Below are positions 746 to 37,613 of a stretch of 64,000 nucleotides of DNA, piece after piece. Numbering within the stretch: position 1 is the first letter of the stretch; the number at the start of each line of letters is the position of its first letter. The stretch is taken from NCBI GenBank assembly GCA_963762145.1, contig CAVXJS010000021.1:960001-1024000 (forward strand). Reading direction: 5' to 3'. The DNA is from an uncultured Candidatus Rokubacteria bacterium (GTDB taxonomy: Bacteria > Methylomirabilota > Methylomirabilia > Rokubacteriales > CSP1-6). The position numbers and the translations under genes were made by a program. The notes below the pieces were generated by a model, which did not search any database, had not been told where the DNA came from, and saw only the letters and a list, made by a program, of their open reading frames with translations.

Positions 746-1735
746 ACCGCTTCGCCTACACGCGGGTCGACGACGTTGCGAGCGCGGTTCGCGAGATCTC
801 CGACGACGGCGCCGCCAGGTTCATCGCGGGCGGCACGAATCTCCTCGACCTCATGAAGGAGAACGTCGAGCGGCCCGAGCCGCCTGATCGACATCACGCA
901 TTTGGCGCTTCGGGACATCGAGCCGACCGCCGAGGGTGGGTTGCGGCTCGGCGCGCTGGCGACGAACACGGACGTCGCCTATGACGCCCGGATCGAGCGG
1001 CGCTACCCGCTCGTGGCGCAAGCTATCCTAGCCGGCGCCTCCCCGCAGCTGCGAAACATGGCCTCTGTCGGAGGTAACTTGATGCAGCGCGCCCGTTGCG
1101 CCTACTTCTATGACACCGCGACGCCGTGCAACAAGCGCGCACCGGGGTCGGGGTGCTCAGCGGTCGGTGGGTTCAATCGATACCATGCCATCCTCGGGGC
1201 GAGCGAGCAGTGCATCGCGGTCCATCCTTCGGATATGTGCGTGGCCTTGGCCGCGCTGGAGGCGGTGGTCCGTGTAACGGGAGCCCGTGGGGACCGTACG
1301 ATCCCGTTCGACGACTTCCACCGCCTCCCCGACGACACGCCGTTCCTCGACACGAACAAGCGCCCCGACGAGCTCATCACGGCCGTCGACCTGCCCGCCG
1401 ATGGCTTCGCCGAGCACTACGCCTACCTGAAAGTCCGCGACCGCGCCTCGTACGCCTTCGCATTGGTGTCGGTGGCGGTGGCCTTGCGGATGGACGGCGA
1501 GACGATCCTGGCGGCGCGGCTCGCGCTCGGGGGAGTGGCCCACAAACCGTGGCGCGACCGCTCGGCCGAGGCCGCACTACAGGGCCGGCCGGCCTCGCAG
1601 GCATCGTTCCACCACGTGGGGGAGATGTTAGTGCGGGACGCCCGGGGCTTCGGCCACAATACATTCAAGATCGATTTGGTAAAGCGTGCCGTCGTCCGCG
1701 CCCTCGGCCAGGCCGCCGGCATCGAGGCCGCCTAG
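742..1735 (+). CDS. paoB: Aldehyde oxidoreductase FAD-binding subunit (PaoB/YagS-like); frameshift near 880
   Basis: IAGGTNLLDLMK, GASPQLRNMASVGGNLMQR, Cys cluster RCAYFYD..PCNKR..GC..CIAVHPSD, KVRDRASYAFALVS. Confidence 0.9.
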
Positions 1736-35129: not shown

Positions 35130-35420
35130 TCATGCGTCCTTGAGCTCGATCTCGATGAAGGCGAACTCGAAGGCATTCGCGTTGCGCACGTCGTGCTCGA
35201 CTCCCGCGTCGCGGTAGTAGGGCTCACCGACGCGGAGCGTGTTGGTCGTCTCACCGGTCGCGCCCACCGAGGTCAGCGAGCCGGTGGTGAGCGGCACCAC
35301 CACGTACGGGTACTCGTGACGATGGTGGCCGGTCCGCGCGCCGGGCGCGAAGCGCCACTCGGTCACGCGCACGCGCGCATTGTCGACCTTGACGGTAGGT
35401 ACCGCGTCCGCATCGCTCAT
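35130..35420 (-). CDS. Small cupin (BauB-like)
   Basis: VDNARVRVTEWRFAPGARTGHHRHEYPYVVVP..GVEHDV. Confidence 0.85.
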   Translation of the reverse strand: MSDADAVPTVKVDNARVRVTEWRFAPGARTGHHRHEYPYVVVPLTTGSLTSVGATGETTNTLRVGEPYYRDAGVEHDVRNANAFEFAFIEIELKDA

Positions 35421-37243
35421 CGTGGATCTCCTTTCGCGGTGAGCTCCGCCCACCGCGCGTAGAGCCGGTCCACCTCCGCGCGGGCGGCCTCGAGCGCCGC
35501 GTAGCGCGCCTGCAGCGCGGCCGGATCGGAGGCGATGGCCGGGTCCTCTGCGTCCCGGCGGCTGGATTCCAGCGCGGTCTCCGCCTCCAGGATCGTCGCC
35601 TCCATCGTGTCGAGCTCCCGCTGCTCCAGATACCCCAGCCTCTTCCTGGCCGCCTTCCCCTCTCCCTCTCCCCTCTGGGGAGAGGGCAGGGTGAGGGGAT
35701 CGAGGGGCCTGGTCCCGGCGCTCCTCCGCGCCGCCTTCCGCGCCGCCTCCCACTGCGGGTAGTCGGCGAACGTCTCGACACCACCGCGGCCATCCAGCGC
35801 CACGATGACGGTCGCCACCCGATCGAGCATGAACCGGTCGTGCGTCACCAGCACCAGGCCGCCTTCGAAGGTGGTCAGGCTCTCCTCGAGCACGTCGAGC
35901 GTCGGGATGTCGAGATCATTGGTCGGCTCGTCGAGGATCAGCAGATCGGCGGGCTCCCGCATCAGCCGTGCGATGTGGATGCGGGCCTGCTCGCCGCCCG
36001 AGAGGCGGCCGACCGACACCTCGAGCTGCTCGGGCGGGAACAGGAACCGCTTGGCCCAGGCCGCCACGTGCAGGGTCCGCCCCTGGAAGGTCACCGTATC
36101 GCCCTCGGGGGCGAGGGCCCGCCGCAGCGAGAGGGTGGGATCGAGCCCGGGCCGCTCCTGCTCGAACCGGACGACGCGCAGATCCTCCGCCCGCTCGATC
36201 GTGCCCGCGTCGGGGGCGAGCGCGCCCGCCAGCACGTTGAGCAGGGTGGTCTTGCCGCTGCCGTTCGGCCCCATGAGACCGATGCGCGTGCCGGGCGTGA
36301 TGATGAGATCGAGGTCGCGCACGAGCGAACGGCCGTCGAGCGATTTGGCCAGCCCCCGGGCGACGAGCAGCCGGCGCGAGCGCCGGCCGGAGGCGGTGAA
36401 GTCGATCGCGGCGGAGCGGGTGACCGCTCGCGCGCGCGCGTCGCCGAGCTCCTCGATCAGCCGATCCGCTTCCTTGATTCGCCCCTTGGCCTTGGTGGAG
36501 CGGGCCTTGGCCCCCCGACGCAGCCACTCGATCTCGCGCCGGACGGTGTTGGCGAGCGATTCCTCGTAGGCGGCCTGGCCGCGCAGGAACTCGTCGCGAC
36601 GGGCGAGGAACTCACTGTACCGGCCGTCGGTCTCGAAGAGGCCGCTCGGGTAGACCCGGTTGACCTCGAGCATGCGCGTGGCCACGTGCTCCAGGAAATA
36701 GCGGTCGTGGCTCACCACGAGACAGGCGCGCGCGTGGTCTCCGAGCAGCGCCTCCAGCCAGAGGATGCCCTCCACGTCCAGGTGGTTCGTGGGCTCGTCC
36801 ATCAGGAGCACGTCGGGCTCGCCCGCCAGCTCGCGCGCGATCGCCAGGCGCTTCCGCCAGCCCCCGGAGAGCGCGGCCACCTCCGCGCGCCCATCGTCGA
36901 AGCCGGCGCGGCCCAGGACCTGCGCGATCCGGCCCGCGCGCTCGTACTCGTCCAGCGAGGAAAGCGTCGCGGCGAGGACGTCCTCGACCGTTCCCTCCGG
37001 CGGGAAGAGGGGATCCTGCGGCACGTAGCCCACGCGCACCCCGCTACGGAGCGAGCGCTGGCCGCGGTCGGGCGATTCGATGCCGGCGAGGATGCGGAGG
37101 AGGGTGGACTTGCCGGCCCCGTTGGGACCCACCAGCCCCACCTGGTCCCCTTCGAAGAGTCCGAACGACAACCCCTCGAAGAGGGACCGGAGGCCGTGCG
37201 CCTTGCCCACCCCCTCACAGCTCAGAAGAAGCGAACGGGGCAC
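35417..37243 (-). CDS. uup: ABC-F family ATPase, Uup-like
   Basis: Two ABC cassettes (GPNGAGKS/LSGG/DEPTNHLD; GPNGSGKT/LSGGE/DEPTNDLD), linker WLRRGAKARSTKAKGRI, C-terminal coiled coil ..LYARWAEL. Confidence 0.9.
   Translation of the reverse strand: MPRSLLLSCEGVGKAHGLRSLFEGLSFGLFEGDQVGLVGPNGAGKSTLLRILAGIESPDRGQRSLRSGVRVGYVPQDPLFPPEGTVEDVLAATLSSLDEYERAGRIAQVLGRAGFDDGRAEVAALSGGWRKRLAIARELAGEPDVLLMDEPTNHLDVEGILWLEALLGDHARACLVVSHDRYFLEHVATRMLEVNRVYPSGLFETDGRYSEFLARRDEFLRGQAAYEESLANTVRREIEWLRRGAKARSTKAKGRIKEADRLIEELGDARARAVTRSAAIDFTASGRRSRRLLVARGLAKSLDGRSLVRDLDLIITPGTRIGLMGPNGSGKTTLLNVLAGALAPDAGTIERAEDLRVVRFEQERPGLDPTLSLRRALAPEGDTVTFQGRTLHVAAWAKRFLFPPEQLEVSVGRLSGGEQARIHIARLMREPADLLILDEPTNDLDIPTLDVLEESLTTFEGGLVLVTHDRFMLDRVATVIVALDGRGGVETFADYPQWEAARKAARRSAGTRPLDPLTLPSPQRGEGEGKAARKRLGYLEQRELDTMEATILEAETALESSRRDAEDPAIASDPAALQARYAALEAARAEVDRLYARWAELTAKGDPR
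35664..35698. repeat. Palindromic REP-like element in-frame within uup
   Basis: CCCTCTCCCC-TCT-GGGGAGAGGG plus tail CAGGGTGAGGGG; encodes PLTLPSPQRGEG. Confidence 0.7.
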
Positions 37244-37249
37244 GCTCGG

Positions 37250-37309
37250 CTACTTCTTCTCCTTCTTCGGCTTCTTCTTCTCCTTCTTCATGCTCCGGCC
37301 CTTGGCCAT
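37250..37309 (-). CDS. 19-aa Lys/Glu-rich peptide MAKGRSMKKEKKKPKKEKK
   Basis: SD GGAGGTGA 4 nt before ATG; pure AAG/GAG codon run in a 70% GC background; stop 6 nt before the uup GTG. Confidence 0.75.
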   Translation of the reverse strand: MAKGRSMKKEKKKPKKEKK

Positions 37310-37313
37310 GTGC

Positions 37314-37613
37314 TCACCTCCCTTCCCTGATCGCGGCGATCTTGCGATCACGCTCGCCCGCCATCCGCTCCGTATCGCGCCGCAGCGCTTCGTTGAGCTG
37401 CTCGACTTCCTCGTGGCTGGCCGCCTTGCGCAGAGCGGCCTGGTGCAGGATCTCGCGCTCCGCGCCCTTGGCCTGGTACATCTGGCGGACCTCGGCGATG
37501 GCCGCCTTCTGCTCGTCGGTGAGCGGCCGGTCGGATGCGTTCGACTCCTTGTCCTTCTGACGGAGCCGCTCCATCGCCAGCTCGAGCGCGCTCTTGGGGG
37601 CGTTGTCGGTCAT
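37314..37613 (-). CDS. Hypothetical coiled-coil protein
   Basis: MTDNAPKSALELAMERLRQKD..LTDEQKAAIAEVR; helical, charged. Confidence 0.75.
   Translation of the reverse strand: MTDNAPKSALELAMERLRQKDKESNASDRPLTDEQKAAIAEVRQMYQAKGAEREILHQAALRKAASHEEVEQLNEALRRDTERMAGERDRKIAAIREGR

Follow-up and report, generated by a model that had tools for sequence, protein, structure and literature searches.

The minus strand of a 64,000-nt stretch of DNA from an uncultured Candidatus Rokubacteria bacterium (GenBank assembly GCA_963762145.1, contig CAVXJS010000021.1, positions 960,001 to 1,024,000; hereafter the window) carries a lysine-rich gene of 19 codons, the micro-gene, immediately before uup, which encodes a Uup-like ATPase of the ABC-F family. 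The following features were assigned at this locus, in coordinates of the window:

37250..37309, minus strand: micro-gene MAKGRSMKKEKKKPKKEKK plus TAG, 19 codons; the shortest member of the M-[AGS]-K-G-x(4-6)-KEKKKPK family
37314..37321, minus strand: Shine-Dalgarno (SD) sequence GGAGGTGA of the micro-gene; its TGA (37316..37314) doubles as the stop of the 99-aa open reading frame (ORF)
37244..37249, minus strand: 6-nt spacer from the micro-gene TAG to the uup GTG; presumed termination-reinitiation site
35417..37243, minus strand: uup, Uup-like ABC-F ATPase, 608 aa; Pfam ABC_tran (twice), ABC_tran_Xtn and ABC_tran_CTD
35130..35420, minus strand: cupin gene, 96 aa; Pfam Cupin_2; third cistron of the conserved unit
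37314..37613, minus strand: 99-aa ORF without a family match; a recent upstream neighbour, outside the conserved unit

The micro-gene starts with ATG at 37309..37307 and stops with TAG at 37252..37250. The minus strand across the junction reads AGG GAA GGG AGG TGA GCAC ATG GCC AAG GGC CGG AGC ATG AAG AAG GAG AAG AAG AAG CCG AAG AAG GAG AAG AAG TAG CCGAGC GTG CCC CGT. A first-pass annotation of this DNA had described a lysine-rich ORF of 19 codons with an SD whose TGA is shared with the 99-aa gene, ending 6 nt before the GTG of a uup gene that has no clear SD of its own. These coordinates were confirmed, and no well-placed SD was found for uup; an AAGGAG within the micro-gene ends 15 nt upstream of the uup start, and its GAG codon was not conserved. 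In the automatic ORF listing the micro-gene was present only within a 33-aa frame opened by GTG (37351..37250), which had no Pfam or NCBIfam match.

The uup product was composed of two ABC cassettes (PF00005, twice), the ABC-F linker PF12848 and the Uup-type C-terminal coiled-coil domain PF16326. Its best match was the NCBIfam Uup model NF050005, with 405 bits against a cut-off of 900; because this score lies under the equivalog cut-off, we term the protein Uup-like. It was the sole ABC-F found by tblastn and a PF12848 search in this 88%-complete genome. The uup start is GTG in the window and ATG in L023, L025 and six sister-family loci, and since the relatives keep a start codon at the same position, its assignment was considered fixed.

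Conservation was examined in 41 related genomes, 27 of which had a uup ortholog. The micro-gene was located just upstream of uup in 21 of these 27 loci (one of the 21 was cut by a contig end), and all six loci without it belonged to a sister family. Within the window's own bacterial family it was present in 20 of 25 genomes and always accompanied uup, 5-7 nt upstream, and the same arrangement was observed in metagenome-assembled genomes (MAGs) labelled Rokuibacteriota or Methylomirabilota. A 21-nt pattern back-translated from KEKKKPK occurred exactly once per genome in 21 of the 41 genomes and its reversed control in none (0/41); among sister-family genomes, 1 of 13 had the KEKKKPK pattern. 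Lys/Glu-rich ORFs thus recur upstream of uup orthologs, with synonymous third-base changes. The consensus of the relatives was (M/V)AKG(R/Q/K)(S/N)M(K/Q)KEKKKPK(K/Q)(E/N/T/D/-)KK followed by a stop. Among about 20 distinct sequences, pairwise identity was 90% in the micro-gene and 83% in the SD region (13 nt before the start), falling to 40% further upstream. Eight codons were listed as having synonymous variants only (2, 3, 4, 9, 10, 12, 13 and 14; 20 distinct sequences), and replacements were confined to positions 2, 5, 6, 8 and 17, which are also variable family-wide; position 2 was named in both lists. The start codon was ATG in 10 and GTG in 10 of the 20 sequences. One sister-family genome (G027, locus L195, G027:C133:4843-7863) carried a TATAAT box, an SD and a micro-gene, VAKGRDMKKEKKKPKKDKK plus stop, at approximately 1545..1486 on the minus strand, with no uup downstream; the ORFs flanking it had no Pfam family, except for a nearby DUF222 gene.

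The micro-gene and uup share one reading frame in the window, as they do across one stop codon in 17 of 19 distinct related loci; moreover, the stretch is rich in purines and was predicted to stay unpaired when folded. Such features would suit an explanation in which there is no separate gene at all, the codons being either a Lys/Glu-rich N-terminal extension of Uup made by read-through of the TAG, or a purine-rich, unstructured RNA that enhances uup initiation. We regard this as highly improbable. The spacer between micro-gene and uup was 6 nt in 17 of the 19 loci but 7 nt in L015 and 5 nt in L016, showing that the in-frame arrangement is not required, and the stop was TAG in 18 loci and TGA in L014. 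Stop-codon read-through or a fused Uup was rejected on these spacers and the TGA variant, and no fusion of micro-gene and Uup was present among the best 150 of 486 matches to a profile of the micro-protein family. In addition, the peptide is conserved across phyla while its codons drift with GC content, and the micro-gene is also found without uup.

The junction has the marks of coupled cistrons: stop and start are a few bases apart, this proximity is conserved, and the downstream start has no well-placed SD. Judged from this anatomy, uup is probably read by reinitiation across the tight, conserved junction. Of 13 loci without the 99-aa gene, 12 had a TATAAT or TATACT box 28-53 nt ahead of the micro-gene, as against 0 of 7 loci with it, indicating that the micro-gene is the first cistron of the transcript in most of the genus. 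In RNA-labelled soil libraries of two studies, contigs from relatives approximately 96-97% identical ran from the 99-aa gene through the micro-gene into the 5' part of uup (X7 record 25, 37073-37534; X5 record 22, 37143-37560). Over the lysine codons (37234-37295) contig depth was 277-600 in X7 and 74-101 in X3, with 6-15 in the flanks, and many loose contig ends fell at 37253 and 37289; this pile-up was not used as evidence, because transcripts of other family members or unrelated purine repeats may cause it.

On the other side of uup, the cupin ATG overlaps the uup stop as ATGA (35417-35420, minus strand), and a cupin gene lay directly 3' of uup in 17 of the 27 related loci. The conserved unit is micro-gene, uup and cupin. 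The 99-aa ORF, which has no Pfam or NCBIfam family, was conserved in 25 of the 41 related genomes at 61-95% identity. It was found beside uup only in the window's closest relatives, adjoining it in 7 of the 27 uup loci and lying on other contigs in 18 other genomes; the first-pass proposal of a module of coiled-coil protein, peptide and ABC-F therefore did not hold.

The peptide is not restricted to this lineage. Two pattern scans over one genome per species, using the back-translation of KEKKKPKK and in the second case also requiring a MAKG start, yielded 196 loci that were examined; 149 of these carried a member of the form M-[AGS]-K-G-x(4-6)-KEKKKPK-tail, 17-53 aa long, so that among the matches listed by both scans there are at least 149 members, a lower bound. 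Hosts included Patescibacteria (Saccharibacteria, Nomura-, Kaiser- and Paceibacteria), Acidobacteriota, Planctomycetota (Gemmata and relatives), Alpha- and Betaproteobacteria, a Legionellaceae MAG, Chloroflexota and Methylomirabilota/Rokuibacteriota. The search patterns themselves dictated the KEKKKPK core, and at the N-terminus the filter required no more than M-[AGSP]-[KGDQ]; the first 73 members began with MAKG (44), MGKG (14) or MSKG (6), and K3 and G4 were at least 90% conserved in an alignment of 99 sequences. The share of AAA among lysine codons dropped from 0.60 in AT-rich to 0.06 in GC-rich genomes with the peptide unchanged, showing that selection acts on the peptide and not on an RNA element. 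Proteobacterial and planctomycete long forms had 15-35 additional residues ending in ..GKK, with conserved tails; isolates of the Afipia/Bradyrhizobium group are among the carriers of such forms. The stop codons of the 149 listed members were TAG (62), TAA (50) and TGA (36), and on these raw counts TAG seems overrepresented for a set in which GC-rich genomes predominate. With its bare M-A-K-G-x-x-M-x-KEKKKPKK module plus a K-rich end, the micro-gene represents a widespread and unannotated family of micro-proteins in its shortest form, and there is little doubt that it is a real gene.

A search of 1.84 billion representative proteins with the family profile returned 486 at 50% identity (E<=0.001); the best 150 of the 486 were all 190 aa or shorter, the longer of them having frameshifted junk tails. 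All 1385 database clusters retrieved with a 48-aa member were named 'hypothetical protein' and had no Pfam domain, and the neighbours of the family in the ESM Atlas were likewise 'hypothetical'. A full-text literature search found no paper with the motif KEKKKPK or KEKKKPKK, although supplements might list such small ORFs, and no paper on a Uup leader ORF was evident from titles or the opening lines of abstracts.

Gene neighbourhoods were examined in the 149 loci, of which 115 included 1 kb or more of DNA downstream of the micro-gene. The majority of members are stand-alone genes or are followed by unrelated ones. A same-strand ABC-F gene started within 1 kb downstream in 11 of the 149 listed members, at 6 nt in L079, L087 and L198 and at 98-769 nt in L108, L086, L114, L160, L149, L125, L117 and L144; in two more, L145 and L170, it lay 1.7-2.4 kb downstream, and the other 136 had no ABC-F within 2.5 kb downstream. 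The ABC-F partners were of two kinds, a Uup type (the window's clade, and also L114 and L125, these two at 767-789 bits) and a shorter generic type in Patescibacteria. Other translation-related genes were found on the same strand as well. ArfB started 46 nt downstream in the Acidobacteriota MAG L084 and RF3 221 nt downstream in the Burkholderiaceae MAG L266, and a DEAD-box helicase gene lay 0.25-2.4 kb downstream in four Patescibacteria-type loci. Upstream of the micro-gene, HflX ended 26-39 nt away in two Rhodobacterales MAGs (L061 and L073), an ABC-F ended 46 nt away in L171, and bS20 was present in L122. Bacterial genomes have a few ABC-F genes each, so that adjacency in 11 of 149 members is far above random placement, as judged from typical gene counts and not a computed null. 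The linkage spans roughly five to seven separate lineages, related loci not being independent. The link to ABC-F is real as a recurrent gene neighbourhood. The first-pass annotation had named occurrence independent of ABC-F genes as a refutation of its reading, and the 136 members show such occurrence, which weakens the stall-sensor leader.

Several other neighbours were recorded. A SET-domain (lysine methyltransferase-like) gene, L249:5596-6021 on the minus strand, lay 119 nt downstream of the member MAKGNFSQRKEKKKPKANKKK, and genes for DUF892 proteins (YciE/YciF-like stress proteins) stood 3' of the long-form micro-gene in the Xanthobacteraceae MAGs L234 and L238. The EcfG-type general-stress promoter (GGAAC-N15-18-CGTT) was found before none of 74 long forms. 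A common partner of approximately 185 aa in Saccharibacteria was considered and rejected, as these proteins are not one family.

Two explanations of the ABC-F neighbourhood were weighed against the one we favour. In the first, the micro-gene would be a cis-acting sentinel or leader, a hard-to-translate polybasic-proline peptide whose passage through the ribosome, dependent on an ABC-F, sets downstream expression. The signal would be passed on by termination-reinitiation in the window and, in Patescibacteria, by a terminator that separates micro-ORF and ABC-F gene. The recurrence of a same-strand site upstream of ABC-F genes speaks for it (6 nt in Methylomirabilota, 156-534 nt in the MGDKSKGR lineage, and 98-769 nt in Saccharibacteria, Kaiserbacteria and other Patescibacteria), as do the ArfB gene 46 nt downstream in one locus and the terminator-like hairpins found 3' of the micro-gene and before the ABC-F gene in four Patescibacteria-type loci (L108, L086, L114 and L149), in which no antiterminator was identified. 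In line with the first-pass annotation, two papers describe ABC-F proteins relieving stalls on proline-rich and charged, including polybasic, nascent chains (PMC11162784, PMC11381351), and the Uup-like protein, being the only ABC-F found in the genome, may cover all client types. The same papers, however, assign polybasic stalls in E. coli and B. subtilis to YbiT/YkpA and polyproline stalls to Uup (PMC11162784, PMC11381351), and the peptide has a single proline.

Further results argued against a cis-acting leader. Where the micro-gene lies 3' of hflX (L061, L073) or of an ABC-F gene (L171), it cannot be a leader, because it comes after the translation-factor gene; nor would a leader be expected to stand without ABC-F in most members, to carry conserved tails in its long forms, or to retain promoter and SD without uup, as in G027. 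Acidobacteriota with the same peptide also differ in the downstream partner, which is ArfB, a sulphur transporter or an unknown protein. An attenuator or riboswitch-like RNA was rejected, as MAFFT and RNAalifold on 20 leaders gave a weak, unsupported fold (-12.5). The single-sequence fold of the window leader was no better than shuffles (z = -0.40), an Rfam search of the leader in E-value mode returned 0 matches, and a weak 6-bp hairpin over the uup start was not kept in relatives, as judged by eye from the alignment. Finally, if the coupling is plain reinitiation, a stall would be expected to reduce Uup output, the opposite of what homeostasis requires. The stall-sensor leader of the first-pass annotation is weakened by these results, and we hold it to be possible but not probable.

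In the second explanation the product would be a general nucleic-acid-binding polycation with a nucleoid, RNA or polyphosphate partner and no specific tie to translation, and its placement before uup a fixed accident of operon shuffling. Most neighbours have no translation function (DpnI, DUF892, SDR, TIM, SAM synthetase, SET domain, P-type ATPase), the same genome also contains oligolysine micro-ORFs of another type, and the peptide has been lost in the sister genus, all of which would fit. Against this, the translation-related neighbours are all close, on the same strand and from several phyla, and the 11 members directly before an ABC-F gene exceed chance by far on the gene counts given above. 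The conserved features also include more than lysine, namely M1, G4, a frequent Met at positions 6-7, E and P, which argues for a specific binding partner rather than bulk charge. A general polycation of this kind was considered unlikely.

The explanation we favour is that the product acts in trans, as a polycationic micro-protein with a tie to the translation apparatus, and is encoded as the first cistron with uup and coupled to it by reinitiation; we give it an even chance of being right. In this lineage, ribosomes would load at the strong GGAGG, translate the micro-gene as far as its TAG and, after termination there, resume 5-7 nt further on at the uup GTG or ATG, and Uup synthesis would be tied to translation of the micro-gene because the same ribosomes restart after its stop. 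The peptide itself would act in trans as a small polycation on the ribosome or rRNA, alongside factors for troubled ribosomes. Judged by the company that it keeps, action in trans on the translation apparatus is most likely, through a putative binding. The micro-gene is probably a small translation-linked protein gene and not a private leader of uup. Of the two functions named by the first-pass annotation, the tiny basic ribosome- or nucleic-acid-binding protein fits better than the stall sensor.

Several points weigh against this trans-acting role. Translation of the peptide and its binding to ribosomes are both predictions. A translation-factor gene is found near only some 10% of the members, and related loci among these are not independent. 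A search of 45 family members against Pfam at E<=1 gave 0 real matches, and the family profile had 0 matches to all PDB chains at E<=10, although the ribosomes of the carriers may be unsolved. A looser KKKPK pattern occurred in 0 of 5 genomes (97-99% complete) of the sister family's main genus, four of which keep uup; as these near-complete genomes are without the pattern, the micro-peptide is dispensable and not a core ribosomal protein, and the product is most likely an accessory rather than a core translation component. The hairpins in Patescibacteria fit a monocistronic micro-gene, yet they also have the outline of an attenuator. With respect to coupling, sister-family uup genes without the micro-gene likewise had no canonical SD, so that the missing uup SD alone does not demonstrate it, and the bridging contigs from RNA-labelled libraries are compatible with one transcript but are assembled sequences in which DNA carry-over is possible, and they bear on transcription only.

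A combination of cis and trans action was also considered, in which the KEKKKPK micro-ORF is a universal 'canary' of elongation trouble, wired independently in several phyla before rescue genes (Uup, other ABC-Fs, ArfB, RF3), with the released peptide also acting in trans. We find this rather doubtful. If it were true, the output of rescue factors would follow ribosome performance on the micro-ORF, and its short polybasic-proline peptide would be a natural client of ABC-F-type factors.

The rest of the genome was scanned for comparable frames by six-frame translation of its 6.26 Mb and a search for stretches of 10 residues of which 6 or more are K. The scan returned 20 rows genome-wide, 9 of them from two homopolymer runs, leaving 11 places; lysine-dense frames are rare in this genome of approximately 68% GC. 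The two long homopolymer A/T runs (C9:~876617 and C14:~2726) give poly-K or poly-F in several of their frames and probably arose as artefacts of assembly or scaffolding. Four other oligolysine micro-ORFs, of a different type, were located outside the window: MAKKKAAKKKKKK, MAKKKKAAKKKKK, MAGKKKKK and MPKRKKAVKKGGKKKATKKGKRK, each followed by a stop, at C11:513226, C15:112093, C15:184642 and C15:112197, respectively, all on the minus strand.

Housekeeping ABC-Fs such as Uup are nearly universal, and their natural clients and regulation are still being settled (PMC11162784, PMC11381351). Gene callers have mostly overlooked the micro-gene, whose conservation extends from ultra-small Patescibacteria to Alphaproteobacteria; one soil lineage has it 6 nt before the only ABC-F found in the genome. 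The 19-residue peptide is therefore a cheap handle, whether it proves to be a client of ABC-F proteins, a regulator or a new micro-protein bound to ribosomes. The family, with 486 representatives at 50% identity counted in called proteins only, is a large addition to the unannotated bacterial micro-proteins.

Four known systems resemble the locus in part. Eukaryotic ABCF1/ABC50 and yeast Arb1 have Lys/Glu-rich N-terminal extensions, and as in these proteins a polybasic K/E segment lies directly before the first ABC cassette, in the window even in frame; the micro-gene, however, forms a cistron of its own, 2 of 19 distinct related loci do not keep the frame, and the best 150 of 486 profile matches contained no fusion. 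The arrest-peptide monitors SecM-SecA and MifM-YidC2 operate through SD-masking hairpins and occur in narrow lineages. As in these systems, translation of the ORF that comes first could indicate how active the product of the following gene is, but the micro-gene leader has no conserved hairpin and its peptide is found across phyla.

Antibiotic-resistance ABC-F genes of the vmlR, msr and vga type are controlled by leader ORFs, which, like the micro-gene, are very short same-strand ORFs just upstream of an ABC-F gene, the level of the ABC-F being set by how ribosomes behave on the leader. As with a leader peptide, the micro-gene lies directly upstream of uup on the same strand (6 nt in the window, 5-7 nt in 19 of 19 loci) and, as far as the bridging contigs show, in the same transcript. 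The window differs in having no alternative RNA structure, a stop-start junction of 5-7 nt and a housekeeping, Uup-like target. Moreover, a leader peptide would be expected only with the gene that it regulates, whereas the micro-protein family spans phyla and is mostly not beside ABC-F. Tiny basic ribosomal proteins such as bTHX, bS22 and bL37 would be expected to be kept throughout a lineage; the micro-gene was not found in the five near-complete sister-genus genomes, its family has no Pfam, NCBIfam or PDB match, and its ribosome association is putative. What the family has in common with them is a length of 17-53 residues, an extremely basic composition, a strong SD of its own and a gene that is rarely called, and bTHX begins with M-[AG]-K-G, as most members of the family do.

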